In this document: piece by piece, positions 1 to 64,000 of the stretch
Numbering within the stretch: position 1 is the stretch's first letter
Layout: each line of letters starts with the position of its first letter
NCBI GenBank assembly: GCA_964537215.1
Contig: CAZIBI010000011.1
Location: forward strand, 4,517 to 68,516
DNA: 64,000 bases
Direction of reading: 5' to 3'
Source: an uncultured Ignavibacteria bacterium
GTDB lineage: Bacteria > Zixibacteria > MSB-5A5 > CAIYYT01
The notes under the pieces: model-generated
Told to the model about the DNA's origin: nothing
What the model saw: only the letters and a program-made list of their open reading frames with translations
Databases searched by the model: none
Made by a program: the position numbers and the translations under genes

Positions 1-333
1 CAGTTTAACGCCTATTTGCGCTCGATCGTCTTGAATACGGTCTTGAAAGCGGCTGAAAGCGAAGCAAGGCTGGAGCCAAGCTCGGAGTCTGTGTTGCCGG
101 AAGCCACCAACGGCGACGAGTTCAAGCGGTTTGCCGACAAGGACGTGGTCGAATTTGTCCTCGGTCGCCTAAACTCCGGATGCCGTGAGCTCCTGACGCT
201 CAAGTACTTGCAAGATTTGGACAATTCCGAAATCGCAGAGAAACTGGGACTGCGCGAGGGTACAGTTAGAGTTCGAATTCATCGTTGCACCGAGGGCGCA
301 AAAGAAGTATTGAGGGACAATGGACTTCTGTAA
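1..333 (+). CDS. ECF (sigma-70 family) RNA polymerase sigma factor, C-terminal part; gene continues upstream of the window
   Basis: The translation contains a sigma region 4 helix-turn-helix (...LTLKYLQDLDNSEIAEKLGLREGTVRVRIHRCTEGAKEVL). The reading frame is open back to position 1, and the start listed by the ORF finder at 16 is a TTG. An anti-sigma factor gene follows immediately. Confidence 0.7.
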   Translation, partial: QFNAYLRSIVLNTVLKAAESEARLEPSSESVLPEATNGDEFKRFADKDVVEFVLGRLNSGCRELLTLKYLQDLDNSEIAEKLGLREGTVRVRIHRCTEGAKEVLRDNGLL

Positions 334-382
334 CAATAGCATCGGAACTGGTACCGATATGTTGGAGGCGTGGAGATAGCTT

Positions 383-1231
383 ATGGCTTGCAACGATCCG
401 CGCTACCAATTCTTGCTGGCTGATGCCGCATTGGGCAAACTGTCGCCAGGCGAGATGTTCCAGCTTCAGAGCCACTTGCGCAGCTGTCAAACTTGCCGTG
501 AGAGCTTCAGGGCCGGCGCGATTTTGGCAGGAAAGGACCACGAAGATTTGACTAAGGAATTTGGCGGGCATCCATCAAACGACGAAATTACGCAATACTA
601 CTCGGAGCGCGCCGGCTTGGCGCCCGCCGTTTTGCAATCGATTGAATCGCATCTGGAACTGTGCGCCTTGTGCCGCGAAGAATTGCAATTGTTCGAGCAG
701 GTCGAGCAGGAAATGCTTGCGGCAGCTACGGCAGGACAGAAAACAGCCGGCAATGACGGCGGCTGGCAACACGCTAAGGCGATTGTCCTCCACCCGGTTT
801 TTGCTGCGGCGGTGCTTCTTGTCGTGGCGACGCCGCTGTATCTGATGTGGCGAGATCAAGCCAAACTTTCGGCGCCGATAGTTCCAGGCATACCAACTGC
901 GATAGAACTAAGAGAACCGAGCCGATCGGGCGGAAGCATACAGACTATCCTCAAGCGGCCCGATGGCAGCTATCTGCATCTCATTCTGCCCTATCCTTAT
1001 CAAGTCAGCACGCGTCACTATTTTGTGCAGCTTCACGGTGCCGAAGCAATGAGCGCGGAATCACCGCCGGTCTGGTTGAGATTTTCGCAAGCCGGTAAGA
1101 TCGATGCGTTGATTGGGGCCGCCAATCTCCCCGAAGGGCGGTATGAGCTTACAGTATTCGATGTCGGACGCGAGTTACTGCCCGATACTCTTACCACCTC
1201 ATTCATCTTTGATCTCAAAATTCGAGATTAG
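383..1231 (+). CDS. ZAS-type anti-sigma factor: two zf-HC2 motifs, one transmembrane helix and a periplasmic C-terminal domain
   Basis: There are two HxxxCxxC motifs (HLRSCQTC and HLELCALC). A hydrophobic helix (AIVLHPVFAAAVLLVVATPLYLMW) is followed by a roughly 130-aa C-terminal domain. The gene lies directly downstream of the ECF sigma gene. Confidence 0.6.
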   Translation: MACNDPRYQFLLADAALGKLSPGEMFQLQSHLRSCQTCRESFRAGAILAGKDHEDLTKEFGGHPSNDEITQYYSERAGLAPAVLQSIESHLELCALCREELQLFEQVEQEMLAAATAGQKTAGNDGGWQHAKAIVLHPVFAAAVLLVVATPLYLMWRDQAKLSAPIVPGIPTAIELREPSRSGGSIQTILKRPDGSYLHLILPYPYQVSTRHYFVQLHGAEAMSAESPPVWLRFSQAGKIDALIGAANLPEGRYELTVFDVGRELLPDTLTTSFIFDLKIRD

Positions 1232-1267
1232 CATTTTCAGCGCCAGCAAAGTTGTCGAACAACGCAA

Positions 1268-4200
1268 CTATCTTCCAACCACAATAAAGGCTCCCCACGA
1301 GTATGGATGCGGCGGCATATTTGCTTCGCGAAGTTCACGTAGCGTGGCAAGCTGCGCTTTTCGCACAGCCGATGCAAAACCTTCTTGAAGATTTGTGTAG
1401 AGTCGCTGCATTAGTCGTGCTGTTGATTGGTCGGGCACGTTCCAAAGCGTGCTTACGATGGTCTCGACTCCGGCCAGTTGGAATGCCCGGCGCAGACCAT
1501 AGACGCCCTCGCCATCGTTCACAGTCCCAAGACCCGACTCGCAAGCGGAGAGGACCACGCATTTCGTGCCATGTAAGTCCATCGCAGCGATTTCCTCGCC
1601 GGACAGAACTCCATCCTCCCCGACCAAGGCTGAATCCGCGGGCGCGAGCACTGCCGCTCCGGCTAATAGCAATCCAGATAGCAAAAGAGGATTTGCCGTC
1701 GTGACTTCTTCAAGAGCTTTTGGAAAACAATCATGTGAGAGAAAGTAGGCATGCGTTGCCAGGTGAATAATCTCGTTTCCGCTCGCCAGCCGTTTGAAAT
1801 TCTCCTCGGAAGCTGCGTCACCTACGAGAATATATACCGGCTGCGAATGCGCGGCTCGCCATATTCGAGCGGCGCTTTTTACCTCGCTGCGTGAGGCGAC
1901 CAATGGCGTCAATGATTCCCTCGGAATTCGACAATTTGCCAGTATGCCGCGCGCTACACTATTTTTATTAGAACCCGGTGCATATGAGGCAATCTCCGGA
2001 TTCGTGCTGGCGAAACGTTTCGACAGATCAGCAGTGAAATTCGGGTCGCCGAGCGCCAGCAATCCCGATTGGCGATTTGCAGGGGCAACATCTCGATTGA
2101 GATCGCGAATGCTGTTCAGGTAGGAAAATTGATATTGTTCGATCAGAAACGAATTCGTTGAAGTCGGGAGTGATCCAAACGAAAGCGAATTCAGCGCGCC
2201 GTCGGGAATGACAAACACCTGTCCCGAATCGGGCATGAACTTGCTCAAGGGCTGCCACACGCTGGCAGCTATTTTTTGACCGACCGCGAGGTAAACCAAT
2301 AGCGAATTTGAGTCAGCATCGCCGCCGGTTTCCGACATTGCGCTCATCTGCAAACCGACCCGTCCGATGGCGTCTTCGATTGGCTCTGCCGCGCCCAAGT
2401 TGATCGCCCGCAAAGATCCTCTGTTCGCGATGAACGCTGCATATTGCGATACTCTGCGAGTTGCTGAATAATATTTGACAAACTCAATGAGCGGCGAATT
2501 TTCGCGCAGTAAATTTATCGTTTTATCTTCGCTTAGAATTAGGGTGCCGGGGTCGTCGCCAATCTCGTATCCCAGATGCACCAGCGATTCTTCCAAGAAC
2601 AGTTTTCGAGCGGCAAGGCGCTTGAGTCGACGGTCGAATTTTGCAAAAGAGGAGTCCGCATCGTTTTCAATTTGCGCTCGCGCCAATTGAAGTGAAACAT
2701 CCCGCAACGAATCAAGCAATGGAGACACTCGTTTGTTATTCGAATTCATCAGGTGGGCGCGGTGCTCCAGCACAGATTCCGACACGATCGCCCTCCCGGA
2801 AAGAATCACGGCTGCAAACTCGTCGACAGCGACCGATTTGAGATCGATTCCGGATCTTTCGGGCTGCCGTCGCTGATCGTCATCGGCAAAGAGCGAAGAA
2901 ATGAATTTGTCGCGCAGTTTGTTAATTTCACCGGCAAAACGAGCCGCCTTCAATTCCGGCAATACCTGCACAGCATCCTGAAATCCTGCAAGAGCAATTT
3001 GGTAGGCTCTGGCAAAAGACCGCTGCGCTTCTTTTACTCGATTGCTCCGCAGCTGCAATTCGCCATAGCTGGATAGCAATTCACTCATTCGTGTGCTCTT
3101 GGTTATTTCAACTGATTCGGCAATCGCGATTGCGCGTTGATAAACTGTGTCCGATTGAACAAGATCGCCGCGATCGCGGAGATATTCGGCATGTTCGACC
3201 AAAGGTCGAATTAGGCGGAAGTTGCTCTCGCCATCCCGGCGGTTAACAATGTCTATTACGAGGCGCACCAGACTGTCGGCCTTGTCCAATTGACCTTCGG
3301 TCTTGTCGATTTCTGCGATTGTCATCAGCGCATCACTGTCGAGACTGTCGCCGCGAGCCCCAAGGATGGCAAGCGCCTTGTTCGCTTCAACATGTGCCAG
3401 CGGCAGTTTGCGTTGCTTGATATGCAGTTTGGCTAAGTCGAGATAACCGAATGCGACCTCCGGGTGGTCCGCACCCAGAAATTTGCGTTTGACTCGTAGA
3501 ACCCGATCCAGCATCTCTTCAGCATCGTCGCTTCGCCCCCACTCATCATATAGCACGGCAAGATTCTGAAGAATGCTCACCGTCGCGGCATCATTGGCGC
3601 CAAGTACAGTTTCACGAATGCCAAGCGCCCGTCGCCAATAGGTTTCCGCCTCGGCGGTCCTTCCCTGATCGAAGCAGACTTTACCCAGAGAATTGAAGCT
3701 TGAAGCGATATCCGGATGGTCCGGCGGCAGAGCCTTTCTGCGGATTTCCAGCGCTACGTTGTAAAGGGATTCGGCGCGCGCAAATTGTCCCATCTGGCGA
3801 TAGAGACCGGCAAGGTTTGACGTCAAGGAAGCGACCTCCTGATGCCCTTCGCCCTGGGTTTGCTTTCTCAATTTTATGCCAAGTGTAATCAGTTCTATGG
3901 CCCGCGAGTACTCGCCTTCGGAAGCAGCGACGCCGCCCAGCCGATCAATACTTCCTTGGCATTCGATATGCTCCAATGGTAAAGCAGCCAAGTTGATTTT
4001 GTACGCTTCGTTCCAATACTGAATCGCCCTCGCGCGATCACCACGTCGTACGTAGTAGTCGCCCAGCCGATTGAGAACATAGCCGACACTGGCATCCGCA
4101 GTTCCCAACCTGGTTCGCGCGATTTGCAACGCCTCCTCTCCGAGTTTGATGGCGGAATCCTGCTCGGCAAACCGACTCTGGACATTTGTAAGAAGAAATT

Positions 4201-4870
4201 TGGAGGCACCCTCGGCAAGATCCATCAGCGCGATGACAACAACCTTGGCATCTCCCCTTTGATTCGCCCGCCACTCTTGGGCGATTTGGGCATCGATGCG
4301 CCAGTTATCTTTGAAACGAAGTAGTCTGACATAGACTCCAACCAACTCGTGCAGATAGGTGAGGCGATTGACCAAAGATGCGTCTACTGAAGTGTCTGAT
4401 AGCGCAAGATTCTCCAGAGAGTCTGCACGCCGTTCGTCGCCTTGCTCCTCTGCCATAATCATCTGGCGCCAGGCGATTGCACGACGAAGCGCAACATTCG
4501 TTGGATGAATTTTCGCCGCGAATGCGGCTGCTGCCGACCAAGACGAGTCGGCTTGGGCGACGGAACTGTCCCGCATGTGATAATCGCCGAGACAGATGAG
4601 TATTGCGGCTCGCGCGCTATCAGCATCCGGCGCTTTCGGATTGACCAATGCATAGGCTTCCCACGCCAGTTGCTTAGCAGAATCGCTCGGCCATATTGCT
4701 CGCTGGCGGGCAAAGGAAATGTCGCACGACAAGCGCTCCGCCAGCGCGAGGCGCGACACCCAATCATTTTGCTCTGCGAGCGAAATAGCTGTAGATAGCA
4801 GAACCGTGATTAGTATGGCCAGACTGCGGGCCAAAACTCCTCCCAGTTTTATTGGTCGGTCAAAGATCAC
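1268..4870 (-). CDS. Secreted or exported TPR-repeat protein with C-terminal CHAT (caspase-like, clan CD) protease domain
   Basis: The N-terminus looks like a signal peptide or anchor (RSLAILITVLLSTAISLA). A long TPR-like helical repeat region follows. The C-terminus has CHAT hallmarks (HLATHAYF..., ...VVLSACESG...). The gene converges on the anti-sigma factor gene. Confidence 0.65.
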   Translation of the reverse strand: MIFDRPIKLGGVLARSLAILITVLLSTAISLAEQNDWVSRLALAERLSCDISFARQRAIWPSDSAKQLAWEAYALVNPKAPDADSARAAILICLGDYHMRDSSVAQADSSWSAAAAFAAKIHPTNVALRRAIAWRQMIMAEEQGDERRADSLENLALSDTSVDASLVNRLTYLHELVGVYVRLLRFKDNWRIDAQIAQEWRANQRGDAKVVVIALMDLAEGASKFLLTNVQSRFAEQDSAIKLGEEALQIARTRLGTADASVGYVLNRLGDYYVRRGDRARAIQYWNEAYKINLAALPLEHIECQGSIDRLGGVAASEGEYSRAIELITLGIKLRKQTQGEGHQEVASLTSNLAGLYRQMGQFARAESLYNVALEIRRKALPPDHPDIASSFNSLGKVCFDQGRTAEAETYWRRALGIRETVLGANDAATVSILQNLAVLYDEWGRSDDAEEMLDRVLRVKRKFLGADHPEVAFGYLDLAKLHIKQRKLPLAHVEANKALAILGARGDSLDSDALMTIAEIDKTEGQLDKADSLVRLVIDIVNRRDGESNFRLIRPLVEHAEYLRDRGDLVQSDTVYQRAIAIAESVEITKSTRMSELLSSYGELQLRSNRVKEAQRSFARAYQIALAGFQDAVQVLPELKAARFAGEINKLRDKFISSLFADDDQRRQPERSGIDLKSVAVDEFAAVILSGRAIVSESVLEHRAHLMNSNNKRVSPLLDSLRDVSLQLARAQIENDADSSFAKFDRRLKRLAARKLFLEESLVHLGYEIGDDPGTLILSEDKTINLLRENSPLIEFVKYYSATRRVSQYAAFIANRGSLRAINLGAAEPIEDAIGRVGLQMSAMSETGGDADSNSLLVYLAVGQKIAASVWQPLSKFMPDSGQVFVIPDGALNSLSFGSLPTSTNSFLIEQYQFSYLNSIRDLNRDVAPANRQSGLLALGDPNFTADLSKRFASTNPEIASYAPGSNKNSVARGILANCRIPRESLTPLVASRSEVKSAARIWRAAHSQPVYILVGDAASEENFKRLASGNEIIHLATHAYFLSHDCFPKALEEVTTANPLLLSGLLLAGAAVLAPADSALVGEDGVLSGEEIAAMDLHGTKCVVLSACESGLGTVNDGEGVYGLRRAFQLAGVETIVSTLWNVPDQSTARLMQRLYTNLQEGFASAVRKAQLATLRELREANMPPHPYSWGAFIVVGR

Positions 4871-5200
4871 GACTGTCGAATATGGTACTAATATAACCCC
4901 TTTTATCGATTAAGTCAAGCTCTGTTGGCGCGAGCCTGCAGTCCTTACGACCGCCCCCTGCGAATTGCGCTCTGGAGAAGCGTCATTTTGAAAGAGGTCT
5001 TTGCAGTGAGCTGCAATGGTGATTCTGGGAAGCTCGATAATGTCCATGAAAGAAGAAGGAATCAATAGTGCCTGGAAGCGACATGTCCGCACGACTTTCT
5101 TGCGACCCGTTCAGTTGGAAGTGTGGAGTTCTTCAGTTGGGTCCACCCGGATAGCTACGTTCCGATGTCAGTCACAATACCGAGGCACAAAAATGGCACA

Positions 5201-5222
5201 CCCGGAGTCTTCGGACTCCGGG
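5201..5222 (-). terminator. Stable hairpin (9-bp stem, UUCG/CGAA tetraloop) downstream of the tRNA remnant; possible terminator
   Basis: The plus-strand sequence is cccggagtc-ttcg-gactccggg. On the minus strand it is followed, after a 6-nt spacer, by AUUUUUG. It sits where a tRNA gene terminator would be expected. Confidence 0.35.
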
Positions 5223-5261
5223 CGGGCTAGTGAAGATCATGATAACTCGTTGGCTAGTAAA

Positions 5262-5306
5262 TGCCGGAGGGGGGAATCGAACCCCCACGGGTTTATGGCC
5301 CGCCGG
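5262..5306 (-). other. tRNA 3'-terminal fragment (T arm plus acceptor 3' strand); putative prophage att core or remnant
   Basis: The minus-strand sequence reads GGGGGUUCGAUUCCCCC-CUCCGGC-A, a canonical T stem-loop (GTPsiC-type UUCGAUU) followed by a 7-nt acceptor 3' strand and discriminator. No complementary 5' acceptor strand (G[CU][CU]GG[AG]G) and no D or anticodon arm occur within 150 nt upstream. Instead there is an unrelated perfect hairpin, GACAGC-AAA-GCUGUC. Confidence 0.5.
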
Positions 5307-5454
5307 ATTTTGAGTCGCTCGGACAGCTTTGCTGTCATAGAGTTACGAATCGTGTAACTGCCGCAGTGTCACTCCAAGAAATTCTTGTCAATAATAAGCT
5401 ATGATCGGTCAACCTCATACTACATTTTTAGGCTCGAATTAGGAAGGAGTAAAA

Positions 5455-6312
5455 ATGTGGGATGAATTGATCAGGTGGATTGGTGCTTTACTTGTCGGTG
5501 GAGCAGGGGTAGGAACATCTCTTGCCGAAACTCGGTATATGGGTGAACTCAACATTAAGGGTCGGCTCTTTCTGTTGAGCACGATTGTTGGCCTGCTAAT
5601 GATCACTGCAGGCGAGGTTTACAATCATTTTGTTGAAGACCGCCTTCAACGTCAGAATCAAATTGAAAATAAGTTCAGTACTCTTAAGGAATTTCCAATC
5701 AGAAATTTGGTGTTTGAATTTCATGTGGACAGCAAGAAGCTTAGCGACTTCCCGACTTTTAGCGCCAACTTCAATATAGAGGCTTTTACACCCGCTAACA
5801 TGAAGTTATTCGCACCCGTCGTACATATGCTCGGCGGGGTCTGCCATGATAGAGATTCGGGATGGGTCACGGGTGGCCCCCCTACTTATCCATTTGAAAT
5901 AGAACACAGCGATACTACACTGAGGTTCATAATTGAAAATCCCATGCTATATGCTGGTCCTAAGAATCCAAAACTTCGAATATCAAAAATATCTGACCTT
6001 GCGGGCCTTGATCTCCAGGTCTTCTTGGTGAGAACAGGGTGGACTGGAGATTGGCGAGATGCAACTTTTTCTCCAAGCGCCAATCCACTTACCGAATGTG
6101 AAGTGTTTGCTGAGGCCACCTTTGGAAAGCAACTTGTTTTGAAGTTGATTCCGGTGTATGAGCGTGATGATTCGAGCTGTGTCGCTGTGTACCTCCCCGC
6201 CACCGAAGCTCTAAAGCTAAGTACCGTGTCGGACTTTCGTCGCGCAGGGTGGAAATATAATCACTTCACGGTTGATGTCGCTGAAATGAAGAACTATTTG
6301 GAAGTACAATAA
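5455..6312 (+). CDS. Membrane protein (two N-terminal transmembrane helices plus a roughly 200-aa soluble domain); cargo or moron gene at the prophage end
   Basis: It is the only substantial plus-strand gene in the prophage. It is visibly more AT-rich than its surroundings and has a strong RBS (AGGAAGGAG, 7 nt before the ATG). The two hydrophobic segments are IRWIGALLVGGAGVGTSLA and LFLLSTIVGLLMITAG. Its own terminator follows. Confidence 0.6.
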   Translation: MWDELIRWIGALLVGGAGVGTSLAETRYMGELNIKGRLFLLSTIVGLLMITAGEVYNHFVEDRLQRQNQIENKFSTLKEFPIRNLVFEFHVDSKKLSDFPTFSANFNIEAFTPANMKLFAPVVHMLGGVCHDRDSGWVTGGPPTYPFEIEHSDTTLRFIIENPMLYAGPKNPKLRISKISDLAGLDLQVFLVRTGWTGDWRDATFSPSANPLTECEVFAEATFGKQLVLKLIPVYERDDSSCVAVYLPATEALKLSTVSDFRRAGWKYNHFTVDVAEMKNYLEVQ

Positions 6313-6313
6313 A

Positions 6314-6348
6314 CCCCGTCAACTTTAGTCGACGGGGTATGTCGCTTT
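6314..6348 (+). terminator. Rho-independent terminator of the plus-strand cargo gene
   Basis: The sequence is ccccgtc-aactttagtc-gacgggg followed by the T-rich stretch tatgtcgcttt, placed 2 nt after the stop codon. Confidence 0.5.
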
Positions 6349-6375
6349 AGGGGACCGACCGGCATCGAGAGAGGG

Positions 6376-6435
6376 GGCAGGAAACTCCCGATACCACACG
6401 GTCGCTCCCCAGCCGTAAGATAGCAGTTTCCTGCC
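6376..6435. repeat. 11-bp perfect inverted repeat (ggcaggaaact / agtttcctgcc) enclosing a 38-nt loop, in the gap between convergent terminators
   Basis: Direct inspection of the sequence. Confidence 0.5.
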
Positions 6436-6458
6436 GTAGTCAAGCGATTTCTCAACAC

Positions 6459-6487
6459 AAAAAAAACCCGGCCGTTTCCGACCGGGG
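6459..6487 (-). terminator. Rho-independent terminator ending the minus-strand late or lysis operon
   Basis: On the minus strand the sequence reads CCCGGUCG-GAAA-CGGCCGGG followed by eight U residues (plus strand aaaaaaaa-cccggccg-tttc-cgaccggg). It lies about 40 nt after the stop of the 6528..6962 gene. Confidence 0.6.
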
Positions 6488-6527
6488 TCACCCTAAAGAA
6501 GAAGCACACCGCCGATGCGGAGTTCTG

Positions 6528-6962
6528 TTAGGCCGCCTTGACCAAGGTCGGTGCTGCCACCTTCTTGAGCCAGTCGGCGCCTTTGAATTTGTTCAGCCAG
6601 GCAATCGCGGCGTCGACGCCCTTGCCGATGATCCAGCCCTCGATCGATTCCGGGACAAACGGAATGTCAATGACGCGGTTGATGATCTCGACCAAAGCGT
6701 CGCGCTTCTCTTTGCTGATCAGCACGGCACCGGTGTCCTTGGCGATCTTCTCGATCAGCCAACCGGCAGTGCGCGAGATCTCTGCGACGGCGAGCATGTT
6801 GCCGGTGACGGCTTTGTCGAAGCCGACGATCTTGCCGGTGTCGTCGAGCTCGAACGGATTCCACCCTTCGACGCCGACCATGCCGACCAACTCCTTGATC
6901 TTGTCGACGTCGAGATATTTGACTAATTCCGTTTTCAGGAATGTCGCATCAATAGATGACAT
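6528..6962 (-). CDS. Hypothetical phage protein (144 aa), last gene of the late operon
   Basis: An ORF with a protein-like composition, positioned downstream of the lysis genes. Confidence 0.4.
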   Translation of the reverse strand: MSSIDATFLKTELVKYLDVDKIKELVGMVGVEGWNPFELDDTGKIVGFDKAVTGNMLAVAEISRTAGWLIEKIAKDTGAVLISKEKRDALVEIINRVIDIPFVPESIEGWIIGKGVDAAIAWLNKFKGADWLKKVAAPTLVKAA

Positions 6963-7022
6963 AGTTATCTCCTGTGATTTTGATTATGGATTTGAGGTGA
7001 GTGAACGAAAGTGTTGCGAGGT

Positions 7023-7505
7023 TTACGCGCCGCGCCGCGGAGAGCCGCCCCAGATGAAATTGCCGACCATGTAGATGATGATCGCTGCCACTGCCCCCTG
7101 CAGACCGAACCGTATTGAATACCAAAACCCGAAACCGGTCGGTGAGATGAAGGCCAGGAATATGCCGATCACGAACGGCAATGCTATTGACCGATTGTCG
7201 ACAAAGAAGAGCTCGCCGTTCTTCTTGACCTTGCGCTTCGTAAATTCCGTCAACACGAAGATCATGCCGACAAGCACGGCGAACAGAAACGGGTTTGCGC
7301 CAAAGTACCGCGCCAGTGACTCGATCGTGAGAATTTTGTCGAAGTCGAACGGCGACGGTGTGACGATAGTCGTATCCACAACAGTCGAGTCGAAGCTGCT
7401 CGCGGTTACGGTTCCGACTGCAGGCACGGCATTAGTCGGAATGGTCTGCTGAGCCCAGAGAGTGACTGGCATGATCAGCAGTGCCAGAACGAAAAGGATT
7501 CTCAT
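7023..7505 (-). CDS. Holin-like or lysis-associated membrane protein (signal peptide plus three transmembrane segments)
   Basis: The product begins MRILFVLALLIMPVTLWAQQ and has three further hydrophobic helices. It lies immediately downstream of the endolysin gene. The start is placed at the internal Met, because the 7023..7640 ORF would overlap the endolysin by 115 nt. Confidence 0.4.
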   Translation of the reverse strand: MRILFVLALLIMPVTLWAQQTIPTNAVPAVGTVTASSFDSTVVDTTIVTPSPFDFDKILTIESLARYFGANPFLFAVLVGMIFVLTEFTKRKVKKNGELFFVDNRSIALPFVIGIFLAFISPTGFGFWYSIRFGLQGAVAAIIIYMVGNFIWGGSPRRGA

Positions 7506-7525
7506 GTGTTTCAAATTCCCTCCAA

Positions 7526-8089
7526 TCATAGCACCGTCCGCGACAACCAGCCGTGGAGGTACCTGCGAAACTGTGAATTGTTGATTGCTAACTGCGTATA
7601 GAAGGCCCGCCGCAAATCCACCTGGCTCTCGGCGATCCAAGCGTAGTCTGACTTTGCCGCGGTCAATGCAGCAATCGTCTGATCGCCCATGACACCATCG
7701 ATCTTGACATCGATGCGCGACTGCGGACTTTTGTTGTGGACGTTTAACGCTGACTGCAAAAATATGACAGCCCGTTGGGCGCCGATATTCACAGCGGCGT
7801 CGAAAAGTTCGTTGGCTATTCGCTGGTGGATAATCTGGTTGCAGCGCAGTCGCTCCCAGATGTCGAGATAGAATGTCTCAACCTCGTCATTGATATCCGG
7901 GTCCAGCTCGAGCATGCGCGGGAAGCCGGGCCCCTTCTTCATCTCGTCGACCTTCACCCACCCCGGCCATTGTGGGTTGCGCTTGCGAGCAATGCCGCGA
8001 AACGTCTCGCCGCCTGGATCGGCGGGATCGATTGAATAGCCGCCCTCGTGCTTGGAAGTTTGCTCCCAAGCGTATTTGAATTCTGCCAT
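7526..8089 (-). CDS. Endolysin, glycoside hydrolase family 108 lysozyme domain with C-terminal peptidoglycan-binding domain
   Basis: The N-terminus carries the GH108 signature HEGGYSIDPADPGGETFRGI. The C-terminal part resembles PG_binding_3. Confidence 0.75.
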   Translation of the reverse strand: MAEFKYAWEQTSKHEGGYSIDPADPGGETFRGIARKRNPQWPGWVKVDEMKKGPGFPRMLELDPDINDEVETFYLDIWERLRCNQIIHQRIANELFDAAVNIGAQRAVIFLQSALNVHNKSPQSRIDVKIDGVMGDQTIAALTAAKSDYAWIAESQVDLRRAFYTQLAINNSQFRRYLHGWLSRTVL

Positions 8090-8092
8090 GGC

Positions 8093-9097
8093 TTAAGTCG
8101 TGGTACCGGCGACCTGCAACTCGTAGAAGCTATTTTGCGCCGCGTCGCCGGCGTTGAGTGTTAGCTCGCACCAAATGCCGATAGCATCAGCGGGCTCGAG
8201 GTTTCCGGTCGGCACGTTCTTGTTGCTCGAGTCAAAGGTTCCTGAAGGCGCAACCTTTCGGTTATTGCCGGAACCGTTCGTACCCGAGGCGTTGAGCGAG
8301 CCTTCGAGCATGAATGCTTCTTTGGTCGAAATACCCGACACGACTTCGCTGACAACTGCGTTGGAGAGCGCCAGCGTCGCGTGGGTATTCTTGGCGAAGA
8401 TCTTGTCGTAGCTCTTGACGTTCGAGCCACCGGTCGCGGCCGCGGCTTCGTCGAAGTGAATGCGACGGCACTGCATGATTTCGGTCGGTGTCTTCTCGAA
8501 AAACATTCCCGGAGCCACTTCAAATCCGGATCCGTTGGCCGGAGCCGTGCCCCAATCGTTGCGGACATAAGCACGCTTCAACGTGCCGTTGTACGCGACA
8601 ATCTCGTTAAGCCCGTTTGCACCGGTTCCGGAAGTTACGCGGACGACCTGGCCCTTGTAGATATCGTCTGTGGCCGAAGCGCCGGCGTCGAGATCGATGT
8701 AGGGCTGGCCATCGGCGTCAACACCGCCGCCGGTTGCCGTGTTCGATCGTGTGGCCGTATTGGACATCAGCGCAATATGGCCAGCGCAAGTGGCGGACTT
8801 GACCGCCTTCAACAGGCGCGCAAACGTCTTCGGCGTACCGGCCTGGACTGCCGTTGTTCCGTTCAGGTTGATCGTTTCGGTGATCTTCGCTCCGGAAGAC
8901 GAGCGGCCGGTGATCGCAATGTTCTGTGTCGTGTCGCCGGCGTTTGCCGAAACGGCCTTGAGCTGCACAGCCGAGCTCAATTCGCCCCAGACGACTTTCT
9001 TGGCGGTGTCAATCGCGCCGCCGATTTGCTGCACTGTGTCATCGTCCGGCATGGTAGCAGAACCATAGAACCGGATGTCGCGCTTAATAACGCTCAT
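8093..9097 (-). CDS. Putative tail fibre or receptor-binding-associated structural protein (334 aa)
   Basis: It lies between the giant fibre gene and the lysis genes. Its G/T/S/N-rich composition is typical of fibre or adhesin proteins. Confidence 0.35.
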   Translation of the reverse strand: MSVIKRDIRFYGSATMPDDDTVQQIGGAIDTAKKVVWGELSSAVQLKAVSANAGDTTQNIAITGRSSSGAKITETINLNGTTAVQAGTPKTFARLLKAVKSATCAGHIALMSNTATRSNTATGGGVDADGQPYIDLDAGASATDDIYKGQVVRVTSGTGANGLNEIVAYNGTLKRAYVRNDWGTAPANGSGFEVAPGMFFEKTPTEIMQCRRIHFDEAAAATGGSNVKSYDKIFAKNTHATLALSNAVVSEVVSGISTKEAFMLEGSLNASGTNGSGNNRKVAPSGTFDSSNKNVPTGNLEPADAIGIWCELTLNAGDAAQNSFYELQVAGTTT

Positions 9098-9136
9098 GCT
9101 CTACCTCGCTATTCGAAATGTTGGGATTGCTGAAAT

Positions 9137-9520
9137 TTAGACTGTGGCCAGATTGGTAATCTTGAACCGTAGTTCATCGACAAAGGTCTTGGGCTCAGCG
9201 CCCGCAAGGACGACGGTCAAAGTTAGGACGTGCGTTTCCTCGCAGATCTCGGCTCCGCCGCTGTACACGATCACCGCATCAGCCGGAGTGAGCTCCAAGA
9301 GAAATTCTCCATCTTCATTGAAGCATTCGATCAAGTTCATTGCATTGCGACCGTTGACTGCTGCTGTAGGTTTTCCCTCGACCGTGATTTTTCCCGTCGC
9401 CGATGCGATCATCGAGCGGACGACGACGGTTCCATCCGAGGTTTTCAATTCCTGATCGAAATACAGGTCGAAGGAATTTCCCTCGCGGACTGAACCGGTT
9501 ACGTTGATCGGCATTGTCAT
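9137..9520 (-). CDS. Hypothetical protein (127 aa), coupled to the giant fibre gene by a 4-nt overlap
   Basis: ORF with a 4-nt overlap; possibly a fibre chaperone or assembly factor. Confidence 0.35.
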   Translation of the reverse strand: MTMPINVTGSVREGNSFDLYFDQELKTSDGTVVVRSMIASATGKITVEGKPTAAVNGRNAMNLIECFNEDGEFLLELTPADAVIVYSGGAEICEETHVLTLTVVLAGAEPKTFVDELRFKITNLATV

Positions 9521-12500
9521 TGCCTCCGAATTCGTGCTTTGATTAGTTCTGTGACTCGCGTAATGGCCGCATTGAGCGATGCGGATTTCATCGCAGCGCC
9601 GGACAGCTGCAGGGATTGCAACAGAACTTCCGTTAGCTCCGGCGTCCGCAACATTGCGCCGCCGAGCTCCGGCACAAACAGCCTGGCGTTGGCAATCGCC
9701 AGGACCGCCAGAAAGACGCCTATGTATTCAACTGGAAGTTGCGACTGTGCAATGATTCCGCGCAGGGCTTCGACCTCGAGCCGCGAACGCAGGCTGAAGG
9801 CGCGATTGAATTCAATGTGAGTTGTGATAGATCCCGACACCGGGCTGACAAAGTCAATCGACATGTGGCCCGTCGCGCCAATTCTCCCCATCCATTCCGC
9901 GAGAATACCCTGGGCGGCCGAAATTGCCTTGTTATGCTCGACGGCAAGCCGGTTGGAAGCCGCGAAGGCCTTGCCGGTCTCAACCAGAAGAGTTCCGCCG
10001 ACAACGTTAATCGTCGCACGCGATTCGATCGGCAACCGCGTGTTGGCCGCGACTGACGCTTTCCACTCAACCGGAATCGCGGAACTCATTGAGACGACCG
10101 TTGCGCCGGAGAATTCGAGCGGCAGCTTTGTCGCAAGAATCACTTGCAGCGCGTGCTCGATATTGGTTTTCAATACGCTTGTGACAATCGTGCCCGTATC
10201 GATTTGAAATTGGCTCTGCGCGGCAAGCTTACGCAGGAATTCGGTATTCATGCCAGCGATCACGCCCGCCAACGCCCGGCTTAATTCAACCGGAGCATTC
10301 AATCCGCCGGAAACAGACTTGAGCGATTCCGCCGGCAGCAACGCCGAAAGCGTCCGGACTGAAAGCGACTCGATCTCGACGCGGCCGCGGGCGTCGACCG
10401 AACTGCGCCATTCGACCGGCAGCTGCGCCGACACTTGGAAGTTCTGTGCTCCCAACCACTCGACGGCGATCTGTTGGGCAAAGGTGATCGTGGCCGCCAG
10501 CTCAACCGGAGCCTTCGCCATCGACAACCGCTGCATCAAGACTTCGACCAGTACACTGTTCGCCGCTTGAAGAGTGCGAAGGTGCTCGGTAAGTAGCCGC
10601 GTGACAATCTGCGTGCTGGCCAACCATTCGACCGCGGCTGCGCTTTTAACTATCAGAGATCCGGAGAAATCGACAGCGAGTTTTTGCCCGGCCGCAATCG
10701 CCCTGTTGGTCTCTACCGGGACGATGCCGCTAATCTGAACAGATCCCAGGAATTCGACCGGCAACGCGTGAGTCATCGCTACCTGAAATTGCCCTGTCCA
10801 CTCAACGGGAAGACTGACCGCGTTCGCGACGCTGCGCAGTGATTCGACCGGAACGATTTGCCCGGCAGCTACCAGCTTATTGATCTCCGCCGGCGACGTC
10901 ATCGCCGCAGCAAGTTGCCGCAGCGTTTCGACTGGAGCGACTAAGACCACTGCGAATCCGCCGCGCAGCTCGATTGGAAGTTGAACCGCGGCTGTTAAAC
11001 CGCGTGCGTTTTCGACCGCCATTCCTGCCGGCGTAACCAGGCTGTGCAGCAGATCCGCCGGCATCCCCGATATTGCGGACAGCGAGCGGACATAATCAAG
11101 CGGCAACGTGAAAAGAATCGCGACATTGCCCTTGTACTCTGCCGGCAGCATACTTCGCAATTCGATCCCTGCGAGTGAATCGACAGGAAGCGGCGTGCTC
11201 GCCTGCAGCGTGGAACGCCATTCGGAGAATATCTGCTGGGCAGTCGCCAATTGCTTGTTGGCTTCAACCGGCACGGCGATCTTCGCCTGGAGCGAGCCGG
11301 AGTATTCGTCGGGTAATTTTGTCGCGATCGCAATCGCCGCGAGGCTTTCCATATACTGCTTTAGCGACGCAACCAATGCTGCGCTGAATTCTACCGACAT
11401 TCCTGATCGTGCCTGCAATGAACCGCGCAACTCCGTTGGCAAAAGTGAGCGCGTCTGAAGTGCGCTATTATTCTCGGATGCCAGTACGGCCGTTGATCGC
11501 GTAAAGTATTTGTCCAGCTTCATGTCGATCGTGAATTGCTCGACGCCGGCGCCAAGTAGCGCGATATCGGTCGTGAAGCCCGCAACCTCTTCCGGCTGCA
11601 GATCGATGACCGGGTTGAGATCCCACCAGTAGATTTTGATTTCTTCGATTTCGGCGGTGACGTTTCCCGATGTCGTTACAGTGACCGCGTAATAATCCAC
11701 CTTGACCGAGTACTGACCCAGCGGCAAGCCCAGCGCCTTCAAATCAAATGAAACGGTTGTGCTCTGGAAGCTCGTGGTCAGATTCGTAATCGTGGCCGTC
11801 GAGTTGGCAACAGCTTTCGTCGCATCGTAGGTTGCGCCGCTGGAGACCCACACGTGGAAGCTGGCACTGGAACCGGCCGAGCTCGAGGTCAGCTTCGCGC
11901 GAATCTTGACGTCGAGTTTCCAAACGTCATTCTGCGCCATTTCGTGCTTGCCGTCTTGCGTCGCTTCGTAGGTGGCTGTGTGATCCGTGCTGTAAGAAAT
12001 TGTGTTATCGGTGAAGCTCGATGTCACCGTTGTCGTTTGCCGCTTGTCCTTCTTGCGCTTGACGATGATCTGATCGAAGTACGATCCTTGATCCGCCTTC
12101 AATTTCCATTTCGTCGCATTCGCGATTGAACTTGTGATTTCATCGGCAATCTTGGTACCGCCAAACCAGGCAGAGCAGCCAACGGAAGTGATCTGCAGGG
12201 CGACTTGATACATCTGGCTCTCGAGCGCGTGCAAGCTGCTGTCGTGCCACCCGGTGGAATCTTCGTACTGCGCATAGCTCACGTCGCGATTGATACCGAC
12301 CGACAACACGGCCGCGGCCGCATTGACCAGCTGCAAATAAGTCCGCAGGTACAGCTCATCCATCCAGAGAGCGCAACTAACGATGATATCATCGAGCGCC
12401 GAAGCTAAACTCTTCTCGAGCGCGAAGGTGCCACCCGGAGCGGTTTTCAGCGACCGCGAACCGGTGGCTGTCTTGTTCGGATGATTCGGAGGGCTGACGT

Positions 12501-15474
12501 AAACGGATCCGCTACTCGAGGTCACGGTCATGCCGCGCACGCCATTGACATTCGCTCCGTCCGCGAGCGTCTCAAAGTTCTCATACCCGAGAGGATAGAC
12601 AATCGTCGGATCCGACTTCGGATTGGTCGCGATATCGGGAGCGCCGTAATAGACGTAGAGATCCTTAGCGCCGGCCTTCTTTCCGGCCGACAACGCTTCC
12701 GGTGCCCGGAAAGAGACTATCGTCTCTTCATAGTTGGCGTAATCGATCACGCGGTCCAGCTCGGTCGTGCCCCAATAGACGCGTAGGTCCTTTACGTCGC
12801 GGCGAATCTTCCCATAGGGCGAGGCCGTGAGCTGGAAGACGTCGTTGCCCGATGTCCACATCAGATCAATGCGGTTGTTGGTCAGGCTGTGCTTGATGTT
12901 AAGTATCGGGACGCCAATAGATGAATTGCCGGTAAGGCTCCGTTTTGCCCAGGTTGCACCCGCGTCGTTCGAGAGCAGCTCGATAATCTCAGACGAATAG
13001 CTCTCGTCATCGGATGCTTCGACGAATTCGACAAGGCGATTAACCCGGCTAACTCTGATCGACGCGCCGGCGGTGAGCTGCTTGAATCCAAACTCGACCG
13101 TCTCTGCGGCAGCTTTGGTCCAGGCTGCCGAGGTCGACGGGTTCGTCGTCCAGATATATATTTTCTCGCCATAGGCAGTGTTGGTCAAGACCAGGTCCGG
13201 GCTCTGATAATCCGTGCTCGAGATCCGCAAGATCGCCCGCAGGTCCGGCGTGCCGGAGACCTTCTTCGCAGCGATCGCGACACCGACACCGATGATCAGC
13301 ACATCCGAAGGCAGCGTTGCCGACTTGGTAAAGGAGGCCTCGCAGGTGGACGACGCATGGAGATAAGTATCGTCGGCGTCATAACGTTGAATGCCGTCGT
13401 CGACCAGCGCGTAGTTGACTGACCCGGTCGAGCGTGAAATGTTTGTATGAAAGCCGTCGGCGGCCGGAATGTGATGCTTGTATGCGCGCGAGTCGGCAAC
13501 AGTATAGCAGTGAATCGTGCCGTCCTTGTCGCAGATTGCCGGGCTGCCGCAACGTCCCATCCGGATATTGAAATCCAGATCTTCGGTCATATAGGTGTGC
13601 TGCCAGGCGCCGCTTGCATAGCGCGAGCTGCCAAGGCCACCATCACCATCTGGAGCCCCGAAATCTGGGGCGTAAGCCCACAATACCACCGGCTTATTGT
13701 CGCGCGTCAATGTCAGGTGCCGACAAAAGAAGCTGACGCGATTCCCCGTTTCGTTTTCAATCACTGCGCCAGCGCTGGCTTTGTTGATTCCGGTGCCGGT
13801 TGTACCGCACTGGATTCCAGCGATCGTTCGCCAGGTTGCAAAGCCTCCGGAGCCGCCTTCGTTGTAGTCGCTGTATGCGTACCAGACGCCGAGGGCAATA
13901 TTTGATCCTCCGACGAATGACCAGGCGATGTGAATGCGCTCATTCTTGTCGAGGCGCAAGCCATACATGTAAGTTCGATAAGAGCCGACGTCGTTGTAAT
14001 TGATGATCTCCTGCTCGGAGCTCCAGCTCTCCCCTACCGTGTCGGAATAGTAGAGCACGACCTTGGTCGCCGCGTCGGTTGGTCCCTTGCGCGCGAACAT
14101 GTAAATGCGATTCGAAGAAGGCACCACGATCGCGATCGGATAAGTGTTCTGCGATCCGAGCGTGCCTTTGAGCGTCCAGCCGGTTTCGCCGGCAAAAGCG
14201 CCGGACTGATTTGGTGAGACCGACTTTGCGTAATAGGTCGCCGTGTAATGACAGCCATAGAAGACGTGCAGGTAGCCGGTGTTGTCGATCGTGATCGTCG
14301 GATAGTAGTGGGTGTCAGTGCCTGTGTGCGCGTTATCGATCTTATAGGGCGTGCCCCACTTGTTGGTCACATAGTCATAGCTCTGGATGTAAATACCGAG
14401 ATAGAAATCGCTCTCGAGCTGGCCGAGATAGACGACGTGCTTCTTGGTGCCGAACTCCGCGACCGCATATCCGCTTTCCTGGATCGCTTCATTGTAAGCG
14501 CCGTTGGTTGCAATCTTGTACCGGTTGCCGGTCTTGATTTTGAACTCGTGCGTGTAGTCATCGGTGCATCCGGAGTGCTTCGTATTGAACAGCATCTTGC
14601 GGCGGAAACAATATTTCTCATCCGCCCAAATCCGGTTGATACCTTTGAATTGCGCGTAAGCGCTGTAGTCCGATTCAATCGCCGACCCGTCTTTGAACTT
14701 GATGCGCCAGTAGTACCAGCCATTCGGCGGATCAGATGACAGCTCGCTGCCGTTGTAATCGATCAGCTGGCAGCGGTTGCCGTGCGAAATATCAGTGATA
14801 TCAATCCAGCCCGAGTCCCACACCGTCGAAGCGAAATTAGAAACCGTCGAGACCTGAACATAAGCATGCGTCGCTGTTCCCGATCCGGCAGTGGCATTCC
14901 ACTGCGCCGAGAAGACGGGATCTTCCGAAGCGTCGGTCGGCTGCGACTGGCGCTCGCACTCGAGGTTTGTTGGCGACGGGTGATTCGCGAGGGTGTAATC
15001 GACAACGATCCACACCTGCGTAACTTCCGGATGTTCGCCGGCGACGCCGCGGGCCCGGCACTTGACTCCAGCTTGCAGCGAATCGATATCGCTCGCCGAC
15101 CAGCTACCACCGCCCGGTCGCGAGACCACTTGAGAGTATTCGGCCCAGGATGTCGTAATCGAGAACTGGCTGCCTTCGACCGTCGTGCCGCCGAGGCGCA
15201 GGATCGGGATTACCTGGTTGTTGGTCGAAGTTCCAACCTTGCGGCAGCGAACATAGACCGTGACCGAATTGACAGCGCCATACGCGCCCGCATGATTCTC
15301 CAGCGCATAGCTGTCGGTCAGGTAACTGGTGCCGGTCGTGAAGACGTAAGTCGTGGCATCATCAGCCGACGACTCCGCTACGCACTCCCAGTTGGTTAAG
15401 AGGAGTTCAGGATCTTGTGGCGTCAGCGCGGTGAGGTCACCGGCACCGTTCGGGCGTAAGAGTTCTGTTGACAC
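9517..15474 (-). CDS. Giant (1985 aa) tail fibre or host-specificity protein: N-terminal Ig/FN3-like and beta-propeller-like regions, then about 40 tandem degenerate 18-aa repeats (LPVEW-type) at the C-terminus
   Basis: A single uninterrupted ORF. Its C-terminal ~700 aa are periodic (...SLPVEWTGQFQVAMTHALPVEFLGSVQISGIVPVETNRAIAAGQKLAVDF...). At DNA level the CCGGTCGAA-type unit recurs about every 54 nt. Confidence 0.6.
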   Translation of the reverse strand: MSTELLRPNGAGDLTALTPQDPELLLTNWECVAESSADDATTYVFTTGTSYLTDSYALENHAGAYGAVNSVTVYVRCRKVGTSTNNQVIPILRLGGTTVEGSQFSITTSWAEYSQVVSRPGGGSWSASDIDSLQAGVKCRARGVAGEHPEVTQVWIVVDYTLANHPSPTNLECERQSQPTDASEDPVFSAQWNATAGSGTATHAYVQVSTVSNFASTVWDSGWIDITDISHGNRCQLIDYNGSELSSDPPNGWYYWRIKFKDGSAIESDYSAYAQFKGINRIWADEKYCFRRKMLFNTKHSGCTDDYTHEFKIKTGNRYKIATNGAYNEAIQESGYAVAEFGTKKHVVYLGQLESDFYLGIYIQSYDYVTNKWGTPYKIDNAHTGTDTHYYPTITIDNTGYLHVFYGCHYTATYYAKSVSPNQSGAFAGETGWTLKGTLGSQNTYPIAIVVPSSNRIYMFARKGPTDAATKVVLYYSDTVGESWSSEQEIINYNDVGSYRTYMYGLRLDKNERIHIAWSFVGGSNIALGVWYAYSDYNEGGSGGFATWRTIAGIQCGTTGTGINKASAGAVIENETGNRVSFFCRHLTLTRDNKPVVLWAYAPDFGAPDGDGGLGSSRYASGAWQHTYMTEDLDFNIRMGRCGSPAICDKDGTIHCYTVADSRAYKHHIPAADGFHTNISRSTGSVNYALVDDGIQRYDADDTYLHASSTCEASFTKSATLPSDVLIIGVGVAIAAKKVSGTPDLRAILRISSTDYQSPDLVLTNTAYGEKIYIWTTNPSTSAAWTKAAAETVEFGFKQLTAGASIRVSRVNRLVEFVEASDDESYSSEIIELLSNDAGATWAKRSLTGNSSIGVPILNIKHSLTNNRIDLMWTSGNDVFQLTASPYGKIRRDVKDLRVYWGTTELDRVIDYANYEETIVSFRAPEALSAGKKAGAKDLYVYYGAPDIATNPKSDPTIVYPLGYENFETLADGANVNGVRGMTVTSSSGSVYVSPPNHPNKTATGSRSLKTAPGGTFALEKSLASALDDIIVSCALWMDELYLRTYLQLVNAAAAVLSVGINRDVSYAQYEDSTGWHDSSLHALESQMYQVALQITSVGCSAWFGGTKIADEITSSIANATKWKLKADQGSYFDQIIVKRKKDKRQTTTVTSSFTDNTISYSTDHTATYEATQDGKHEMAQNDVWKLDVKIRAKLTSSSAGSSASFHVWVSSGATYDATKAVANSTATITNLTTSFQSTTVSFDLKALGLPLGQYSVKVDYYAVTVTTSGNVTAEIEEIKIYWWDLNPVIDLQPEEVAGFTTDIALLGAGVEQFTIDMKLDKYFTRSTAVLASENNSALQTRSLLPTELRGSLQARSGMSVEFSAALVASLKQYMESLAAIAIATKLPDEYSGSLQAKIAVPVEANKQLATAQQIFSEWRSTLQASTPLPVDSLAGIELRSMLPAEYKGNVAILFTLPLDYVRSLSAISGMPADLLHSLVTPAGMAVENARGLTAAVQLPIELRGGFAVVLVAPVETLRQLAAAMTSPAEINKLVAAGQIVPVESLRSVANAVSLPVEWTGQFQVAMTHALPVEFLGSVQISGIVPVETNRAIAAGQKLAVDFSGSLIVKSAAAVEWLASTQIVTRLLTEHLRTLQAANSVLVEVLMQRLSMAKAPVELAATITFAQQIAVEWLGAQNFQVSAQLPVEWRSSVDARGRVEIESLSVRTLSALLPAESLKSVSGGLNAPVELSRALAGVIAGMNTEFLRKLAAQSQFQIDTGTIVTSVLKTNIEHALQVILATKLPLEFSGATVVSMSSAIPVEWKASVAANTRLPIESRATINVVGGTLLVETGKAFAASNRLAVEHNKAISAAQGILAEWMGRIGATGHMSIDFVSPVSGSITTHIEFNRAFSLRSRLEVEALRGIIAQSQLPVEYIGVFLAVLAIANARLFVPELGGAMLRTPELTEVLLQSLQLSGAAMKSASLNAAITRVTELIKARIRRQ
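9520..11500 (-). repeat. Tandem degenerate ~54-nt coding repeats (about 40 copies) inside the giant fibre gene
   Basis: Recurrent ttcgaccgg / ctcaaccgg / ctcgattgg motifs at regular spacing, matching the P[VI]E[WF] periodicity in the protein. Confidence 0.6.
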
Positions 15475-17499: not shown

Positions 17500-18723
17500 T
17501 CACACCCAGGCGACGGCAACGTCGATGGGCACAAATTGCGGAATGATCTTGGCTAAGTACTCTCTCTTGGCGGTCTCGAATTGCGGCGACCCGGAGAGTG
17601 TGATTGTCAATGTCTTGTCTGCCTGTCCGGCAGCGAAGAACTTCGGCTGCTTGCGCCGGTCCAGCACGCGCAGGATGTAGTTGTCAAATTCGACATCGGT
17701 GCCGAAGGCGCAGAACAGTCCCTTCTTGTTAGCTGCCACCAGCGCGGCATAGTTCTGTTCATAGATCAAAGTCGTCTCATCGAGTATGACGGTGATCTTT
17801 TCGCCGGTATCCCAGATCGTGATTCGATGCGTTCCGGTTCGCCAGGTTGTGCCGGTGATGTCGACGACGTGAATTGGAATCCACGTACCGCTGAAGACGT
17901 AGACCGTCAAGCTCTCAGCCGAGCCGCTCTTGTCGAGCGTCACTAAAAGTGCCTTCGTCGCGCTCTCATATCTGGCCACAGCACCAAACCAGCAATCGCC
18001 GGTTGTCAGCAGCCGGTACTCAAATTGCAGATTGTAATCCGAGGTCGTCTCCGGGAATGTCGCCGACATCGTCGGCGCCAAGGTTCCGCTCAAGGCTGAG
18101 CCGCGCAAGCTTTGCGCAATCGCTTTGAAATTGCCCAGCGCCTCATTCGTCCAGCCTTCCATCGAACCAGAATCCCACGAGTGCGAGACTTCCTTTGACG
18201 TCACTGCCAGACGCGACCAAAATTTGTGCCGGTTGAAGCGGCCGGAAATCTGATACTCCATATCCATTAGCGCCGTGAAGCCCAAATCCTCGATGATGCG
18301 CTTCACGGACCAAAACGTCCCGCGACGCTTGAGGATCGTGAATGCATCGCGCACTAAGCGCCGACGCTCGCGTTCAGTGGCGTACGGCAAATCGATCAAC
18401 TCGAATCCGAAGTTGGCCGCCAGATGCGACAGAAACCGCTGGTCACAGCGCTCATAGTCGCCGAGATACTGGAGCTCGCGCGCGCGGTCGTACATGGTGT
18501 TGAGCATGTCATTGAGCGGTCCGGCAAATTCGACCATGCCCGGCGATTTCTGGCAACCCGGCAAAAAGTCGAGAATGTCAATCGCTTGCGGCTTGATGCG
18601 CGTTTCCGGAAAAGGGCGCACGCCGCGGTGGTCAACCGGACCGCCGCCGATACCGGCCGGAAACTGCGGATTGAAGTCAAAAAAACCGCCGGGAGTCGGC
18701 GAGACATTGTGATCTAAAACCAA
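17500..18723 (-). CDS. Baseplate protein, P2 gpI-like N-terminal region with an extended C-terminus (407 aa)
   Basis: The N-terminal ~150 aa resemble the tail protein I family (...RRLVRDAFTILKRRGTFWSVKRIIEDLGF). The gene sits in the baseplate region. Confidence 0.4.
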   Translation of the reverse strand: MVLDHNVSPTPGGFFDFNPQFPAGIGGGPVDHRGVRPFPETRIKPQAIDILDFLPGCQKSPGMVEFAGPLNDMLNTMYDRARELQYLGDYERCDQRFLSHLAANFGFELIDLPYATERERRRLVRDAFTILKRRGTFWSVKRIIEDLGFTALMDMEYQISGRFNRHKFWSRLAVTSKEVSHSWDSGSMEGWTNEALGNFKAIAQSLRGSALSGTLAPTMSATFPETTSDYNLQFEYRLLTTGDCWFGAVARYESATKALLVTLDKSGSAESLTVYVFSGTWIPIHVVDITGTTWRTGTHRITIWDTGEKITVILDETTLIYEQNYAALVAANKKGLFCAFGTDVEFDNYILRVLDRRKQPKFFAAGQADKTLTITLSGSPQFETAKREYLAKIIPQFVPIDVAVAWV

Positions 18724-41880: not shown

Positions 41881-41917
41881 CTTGACTCCTGTATGACTGT
41901 GAATGGAAAGTTCCGAA

Positions 41918-62981: not shown

Positions 62982-62996
62982 GATGTGTATTCATCT

Positions 62997-63398: not shown

Positions 63399-63421
63399 TA
63401 CCCGTCCGCCCTATGCCCTTA

Positions 63422-63955: not shown

Positions 63956-64000
63956 TAAATCACTCCATGTGTGATAAGTTCCATCTGCCTGTTAATAGCC

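Follow-up and report, generated by a model that had tools for sequence, protein, structure and literature searches.

A leftover 3′ part of a leucine tRNA gene at the predicted end of a myovirus-like prophage in an uncultured bacterium

Near the left end of the DNA analysed here (64,000 nt in all, referred to as the window) lies a stretch that reads like the second half of a tRNA gene, with phage genes on one side and non-phage genes on the other. This raises the question of whether a prophage has integrated into a tRNA gene at this position and, if so, into which one. An original prediction, made from the sequence alone, had taken the stretch as the mark of such an integration and had placed the intact tRNA gene together with the integrase at the other prophage end, beyond the window.

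A tRNA-Leu(CAA) fragment without a 5′ half

The T arm and acceptor strand quoted in the original prediction (GGGGGTTCGATTCCCCC-CTCCGGC-A) were found at positions 5262–5286 of the minus strand. This is their single copy in the window, even when up to three mismatches are allowed, and 0 occurrences are expected from shuffled sequences. The predicted extent, in contrast, did not hold, as the identical block goes 10 nt past the right edge given earlier (5306). In total, 57 nt of the window (5260–5316, minus strand) are identical at 57 of 57 positions to intact tRNA-Leu(CAA) genes of related uncultured FCB-group metagenome-assembled genomes (MAGs). Read on the minus strand from 5316 to 5262, the sequence is GA-CUCAAAA-UCCGG-CGGGCCAUAAACCCGU-GGGGG-UUCGAUU-CCCCC-CUCCGGC-A, and comprises the following parts:

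5260–5316, minus strand: putative attR core, the displaced 3′ part of tRNA-Leu(CAA), 100% identical to the intact genes at loci L005, L007, L013 and L019–L021
5308–5314, minus strand: anticodon loop CUCAAAA with the anticodon CAA at 5312–5310; identity with the intact tRNA begins 2 nt earlier
5307–5303, minus strand: 3′ strand of the anticodon stem
5302–5287, minus strand: long variable arm of 16 nt (CGGGCCAUAAACCCGU)
5286–5270, minus strand: perfect T arm, GGGGG/UUCGAUU/CCCCC
5269–5263, minus strand: 3′ strand of the acceptor stem, CUCCGGC
5262, minus strand: discriminator A

The 57-nt direct-repeat unit thus starts with the last two nucleotides of the 5′ strand of the anticodon stem and ends 2 nt past the discriminator A (5262). 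Because the remnant covers both the anticodon loop and the variable arm, it can be named as tRNA-Leu(CAA), and ARAGORN called intact genes of this type matching the fragment at L003, L005, L007, L009, L012, L013, L019–L021 and L024. Judged by its sequence, the feature is what remains of a leucine tRNA gene, namely its 3′ part, and would mark the end of a tailed prophage with a predicted size of roughly 70 kb.

According to the original prediction, no matching 5′ half accompanies this remnant, and our searches bore this out. ARAGORN, which had been named as the check for a complete but unusual tRNA, called no tRNA in the whole 64 kb, and Rfam gave no match in the window at gathering thresholds; a permissive Rfam scan returned a sub-threshold, partial tRNA-type match (18.7 bits versus a gathering score of 47). 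For the 32-nt 5′ half of the cognate tRNA there was no match in the window better than 10 mismatches, and no GCCGGAG-like acceptor strand (≤1 mismatch) was present within 400 nt upstream of the fragment. The cloverleaf therefore lacks the acceptor 5′ strand, the D arm and the anticodon-stem 5′ strand. With neither a 5′ half nor an acceptor 5′ strand found, the feature qualifies as a true 5′-less fragment. A complete but unusual tRNA gene, be it split, permuted or intron-containing, would have the perfect 3′ part alone in its favour, but no tRNA was reported by ARAGORN or Rfam, the acceptor 5′ strand and the D arm are absent both upstream and window-wide, and the break falls at the same boundary where identity to the intact genes ends. 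We consider this explanation next to impossible.

Downstream of the fragment, a stable hairpin with a UUCG loop and a U-run had been predicted as the original tRNA terminator. The corresponding features are:

5183–5259, minus strand: B′ arm, composed of spacer, hairpin and T-run, the native tRNA-downstream segment as delimited by alignment and blastn with relatives
5199–5224, minus strand: G+C-rich hairpin with a perfect 9-bp stem (5201–5209/5214–5222) and a loop at 5210–5213
5189–5193, minus strand: T5 run, starting 7 nt past the perfect stem and 5 nt past the extended stem

The B′ arm could be aligned with L003, where the matching DNA comes after the intact tRNA, and with L006, L008 and L010, where it comes after the fragments. 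A spacer of 37 nt (minus strand) separates the fragment from the hairpin, whose stem lengthens to 11 bp when a G·U pair and a C-G pair are counted, contains 8 G-C pairs and closes a 4-nt loop. The 93 nt from 5170 to 5262, hairpin included, fold at −29 kcal/mol (z = −2.85). In the four sequences available, a sample size without statistical power (n = 4), 8 of the 11 pairs are invariant and one pair occurs as U-A, U·G or C-G; the position of the T-run is likewise kept in the alignment with relatives. As in an intrinsic terminator, there is thus a G+C-rich stem-loop (9–11 bp), and it is conserved at four loci. A scan for terminator-like patterns returned one in the window versus 0.7 expected from shuffles, which is chance level, with the T5 run passing the lenient rule of the scan only. 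Of the original prediction, the stem-loop and the T-run stand, but the T-run is not flush with the stem, and UUCG is the plus-strand reading of a loop that is CGAA on the tRNA (minus) strand. Since the loops of the relatives are GAAU, CAAA and CUCC, all of them different, there is no conserved UUCG tetraloop, and a special meaning of such a loop was dropped. The hairpin and T-run would probably end the tRNA transcript and, at their present location, might block read-through from phage late genes into the neighbouring CHAT gene.

The fragment as a probable attachment-site junction

The gene content on the two sides of the fragment differs as had been predicted, with non-phage genes to the left and phage genes to the right:

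383–1231, plus strand: zf-HC2 (anti-sigma-like) protein, non-phage
1268–4870, minus strand (shared with the fragment): 1200-aa CHAT-domain/TPR protein (CHAT, 8.8e-64), non-phage
5317–5380, minus strand: phage-derived P arm, adjoining the core
5455–6312, plus strand: orphan 285-aa ORF with two hydrophobic N-terminal segments, a candidate moron
6528–64000, minus strand: myovirus-like prophage body, running past the window end
7526–8089, minus strand: endolysin
9517–15474, minus strand: 1985-aa fibre-like protein with weak matches to PHROGs of unknown function only
17500–18723, minus strand: Tail_P2_I
20315–24406, minus strand: very large tail-region ORF of 1363 aa
24423–25934, minus strand: baseplate wedge
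32943–34661, minus strand: sheath
39210–40484, minus strand: structural protein
40558–41970, minus strand: head protease
45234–46859, minus strand: portal
46873–48516, minus strand: TerL
53212–54831, minus strand: ParB-like protein
60596–61993, minus strand: DnaB
61965–62981, minus strand: DnaD-like protein (loader)

Almost all of the right-hand genes lie on the minus strand, with the replication module at the right edge of the window, and follow the order DnaB/DnaD-like, ParB-like, TerL, portal, protease, sheath, baseplate, fibre, endolysin and then the fragment. From this gene order it follows that the lysis/tail end of the prophage adjoins the fragment. No isolated phage has a TerL more than 24% identical to this one, which places this phage far from cultured references, and the isolated-phage collection contained no similar DNA. 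As a side observation, a 386-aa protein encoded between the head protease and the minor head genes (42433–43593, minus strand) matches PHROG 11143, of unknown function (2.3e-145), and more weakly an ATPase-type PHROG.

When 53 nt of the fragment were searched for exact matches in the GTDB representative genomes, eight loci were returned (L003–L010), all of them in uncultured MAGs labelled Ignavibacteria or 'uncultured bacterium'. Four of these hold a complete tRNA-Leu(CAA) (L003, L005, L007, L009) and four the 3′ part alone (L004, L006, L008, L010). The same 53-nt pattern had 0 matches in viral_contigs and one, an unrelated intact tRNA, in metagenome_contigs. Host labels differ between databases: the MAGs of L003–L010 are 'uncultured Ignavibacteria bacterium' in GTDB/ENA, whereas NCBI assigns a 100%-identical integrase (P0001) to Candidatus Zixiibacteriota.

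Among these loci, L003 represents the unoccupied site, in which the intact tRNA is followed by a segment aligning with window positions 5183–5261, including hairpin and T-run, and downstream of B′ by non-phage genes only (NAGPA and a large adhesin). The L008 contig opens with the fragment and has a NAGPA flank that is 81% identical to that of L003 over 808 nt. L004 and L010, in turn, are occupied: both are ~75% identical in nucleotide sequence to window positions 6460–9320 and both end at the same fragment, and the P arm of L010 is 86% identical to that of the window over 100 nt. In the MAGs of L004 and L010, an intact tRNA is present on a separate contig (L005, L007), 120–125 nt from a convergent tyrosine integrase gene (PF00589); between the two integrases, identity is 89%. 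The integrase combines an N-terminal SAM-like and a catalytic domain. The same attL-like arrangement of an integrase beside an intact tRNA was also seen in L013 and L019–L025, and in L013, L014 and L019–L025 integrase homologues adjoin an intact tRNA-Leu(CAA) that is preceded by a flotillin gene.

The signature of integration into a tRNA gene, as originally predicted, is thus supported by the 57/57 identity, by the homology of B′ to the empty site L003, by the related prophages of L004 and L010 that end at the fragment, and by a second copy, in the same MAGs as these prophages, within an intact tRNA beside an integrase (L005, L007). We conclude that the feature is very probably the attR junction of a temperate myovirus-like prophage, predicted to measure ~69–71 kb, that integrated into a tRNA-Leu(CAA) gene. 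The phage attP would carry a 57-nt copy of the tRNA 3′ part, and the phage tyrosine integrase would recombine attP with the tRNA gene (attB) inside this 57-nt identity, with the crossover likely at the anticodon loop, where identity starts. Recombination would yield attL, consisting of the tRNA 5′ half, core, P′ arm and integrase and thereby regenerating a complete tRNA, and attR, consisting of P arm, core and B′ arm, which is the side seen in the window. At attR, a promoter-less and 5′-less 3′ fragment would be left behind, still joined to its native hairpin and T-run and to the non-phage flank. The fragment sets one prophage boundary to the nucleotide (5316/5317).

On the phage side of this boundary, the P arm contains two direct GTKACA motifs (5372–5367 and 5358–5353, minus strand), 14 nt apart and ~40–60 nt from the core, against a background of 0.35 GTKACA per kb per strand. 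The pair recurs at the matching position in L006 and L010; in L004, the first copy is intact and the second reads ATTACA. On the P′ side, GTTAYA-N7-CTTACA directly follows the core in several attL loci (L007, L020, L027 and L028, with the P′ arm of L005 also listed). From their sequence and placement, the GTKACA motifs are plausible candidates for arm-type sites of the integrase or of an accessory protein.

Lambda-type heterobivalent tyrosine integrase systems have arm-type sites, and the arrangement described here resembles them in that short direct repeats (GTKACA, CTTACA), as candidate sites, flank the core on both the P and the P′ side, and in that the integrase of the relatives carries an N-terminal SAM-like domain in addition to the catalytic one. 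Unlike a full lambda-type att site, the P-arm half alone is visible in this window. The satellite phage P4 uses leuX, the anticodon of which is CAA. The pathogenicity island PAI II536, with a P4-like integrase, likewise targets leuX of E. coli (PMC3202238). As with these leuX elements, the same isoacceptor gene would be targeted here, a tyrosine integrase would restore the complete tRNA and direct repeats would flank the element; unlike in them, the repeat is 57 nt long and starts from the anticodon stem, and the element is a large myovirus-like prophage.

In tDNA-borne islands generally, a regenerated tDNA together with a displaced 3′ fragment is the defining signature (PMC4383910), and in the Islander collection 3760 of 3919 islands have a 3′ fragment and 2083 of 3919 belong to the anticodon-centred class (PMC4383910). 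Here, with the anticodon stem-loop as the starting point of identity, the att site would belong to the anticodon-centred class (class A) in the classification of PMC4383910. Further likenesses to Islander tDNA islands (PMC4383910; Williams 2002, cited there) are the displaced 3′-terminal tRNA fragment at one element end, the regenerated tRNA that, in the relatives, adjoins a tyrosine integrase at the opposite end and is directly oriented, this same start of identity at the anticodon stem-loop, and a predicted size within 2–200 kb. Of the Islander signature, the tDNA fragment identical to part of a genuine tRNA gene, its reach through the discriminator A plus 2 nt and an unoccupied site in relatives (L003) were found. 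The present case departs from the Islander ones in its host, an uncultured FCB-group bacterium given as Ignavibacteria or Zixiibacteriota in the records, and in that the intact tDNA and integrase of the element would lie outside the window. Since integration of tyrosine-integrase elements into tRNA 3′ parts is textbook knowledge, no new biology is involved, and what we describe is real but ordinary: a well-understood feature, found in a new prophage from an uncultured lineage.

Two other explanations leave the fragment in place but detach it from an integration event of this prophage. The fragment could be a relic of an earlier integration, with the adjacent prophage using another site; tRNA genes do collect fragments of successive elements, and tandem arrays have been reported (PMC4383910). 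However, the homologous prophages of L004 and L010 end at the same fragment, L010 has a window-like P arm, L006 likewise carries the GTKACA pair, of which L004 retains one intact copy, and homologous early regions of related phages lead to an integrase beside an intact tRNA. We regard a relic as very unlikely. Alternatively, the window could stem from an unintegrated (episomal or virion) phage genome, with the fragment as attP core and with CHAT and zf-HC2 as cargo genes of the phage, and attP sites of tRNA-integrating phages do hold such tRNA fragments (PMC4383910). An attP core should, however, lead into a P′ arm (ttaaGTTAYA...) and the integrase behind it, which is the order at the attL loci, whereas the core in the window is followed by the B′ segment seen after the intact tRNA at the empty site, with no integrase nearby. 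A free phage genome is hence barely tenable.

The predicted far end of the prophage

The original prediction that the integrase would be missing from the window was confirmed, as neither the window nor the adjoining 1.3 kb yielded an integrase homologue. This extension was gained with a 177-aa protein encoded at 63422–63955, which matched two ~2-kb Logan contigs. One of them (L001, from SRR14271333) is 100% identical to window positions 62922–64000 and extends 1332 nt further. At the nucleotide level, the extension has 79–83% identity to the early regions of L020, L021 and L028 and is collinear with them. In all three, a divergent regulatory region and then the integrase follow; in L020 and L021 the sequence also reaches the intact tRNA, and the L028 contig breaks off within the core. 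The early region of L015 (7.6 kb) had no similarity to the window and provided no link to its phage, and a DnaB search of viral_contigs returned a single, irrelevant locus.

Based on homology to these early regions, the integrase is predicted at ~73.0–75.8 kb in window coordinates and the attL tRNA at ~74.25–76 kb on the minus strand, which is the orientation of the fragment. By analogy with the related prophages, the intact tRNA and the integrase would be expected ~10–12 kb past position 64000, giving a prophage of ~69–71 kb. The fragment thereby names tRNA-Leu(CAA) as the integration target and predicts where the far end lies (~10–12 kb past the window), which helps in annotating and excising a temperate myovirus prophage from an uncultured, little-studied FCB lineage with no close isolated relatives.

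The core is also where several of the contigs break off, either exactly at it or within it (L008, L015, L017 and L026–L028), and the Logan contigs L015, L027 and L028 end 27–30 nt into the shared sequence. Breaks at the core are expected for a sequence that is present in two contexts, and they fit a branch of the assembly graph at a repeated or polymorphic att site, for example in a mixture of lysogens and non-lysogens.

The two flanks of the junction

Next to attR, the interval 5362–6460 of the window is without an equivalent in L004 and L010, the related prophage ends, and may therefore be a variable moron slot. It contains the orphan 285-aa ORF, which is the sole one among the lysis/tail-end ORFs examined that is clearly read on the plus strand and which has no Pfam, PHROG or PADLOC match; the small ORFs at the prophage end gave no defence-system match.

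On the other side, the DNA that follows the ~80-nt B′ arm varies: L003 and L008 have the NAGPA gene there, L006 and L010 a second integrase, and the window the CHAT gene. Because this context varies among genomes, the left flank may not be core chromosome; it is non-phage but could be an older island instead. A second, unrelated tyrosine integrase lies ~130 nt past the fragment and hairpin in L006 and L010, in attL geometry (L006, 1334–2542; L010, 3799–5007; both minus strand; 402 aa, PF00589 at 2e-31). It is ~23% identical to the phage integrase and convergent with the fragment, and its ORF extends through the hairpin and, antisense, through the fragment. A sigma-70 gene, an unknown gene and a CHAT/TPR gene come after it. 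This arrangement points to two elements in tandem at tRNA-Leu(CAA).

Transferred to the window, this would mean that the fragment is the attR of the prophage, but that the DNA to its left (hairpin, CHAT/TPR and zf-HC2) comes from an older element at the same tRNA, with the hairpin derived from the integrase-proximal arm of that element and the junction lying between phage and island. The second integrase of L006 and L010 speaks for this, as does the finding that the sequences beyond the ~80-nt segment are unlike between genome groups. Against it, the second integrase is untraceable in the window, where its tblastn matches cover the shared core and hairpin nucleotides only; window positions 1–5180 contain no further T arm or hairpin copy; the hairpin in L003 and L008 directly adjoins ordinary non-phage genes without an integrase; and the zf-HC2 protein of the window is unrelated to the 308-aa protein of L006. 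On balance, we consider an older island to the left of the prophage unlikely, though still worth keeping in mind. A synteny between the left flank of the window and L006, seen with tblastx, was dropped: the genes are ordered differently, L006 has an integrase and a sigma factor in between, and the neighbouring proteins are unrelated. Similarity is confined to matches of the CHAT/TPR protein, and what remains of the likeness is CHAT/TPR paralogy.

A broader version of the island explanation would make the tRNA-Leu(CAA) locus a multi-element hotspot, used in tandem by at least two unrelated families of tyrosine integrases, in which the ~80-nt hairpin and T-run module moves with the integrase-proximal arm of the second element and the CHAT/TPR and zf-HC2 genes of the window are decayed cargo of such an island. 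We give this hotspot only a small chance of being correct; if it is, the second element would restore the terminator of the tRNA as well as its 3′ end. L006 and L010 belong to one MAG (CAYJKI): their flanks after the fragment are 100% identical over 1500 nt and their phage sides differ, which suggests two prophage variants at one site in a co-assembled population.
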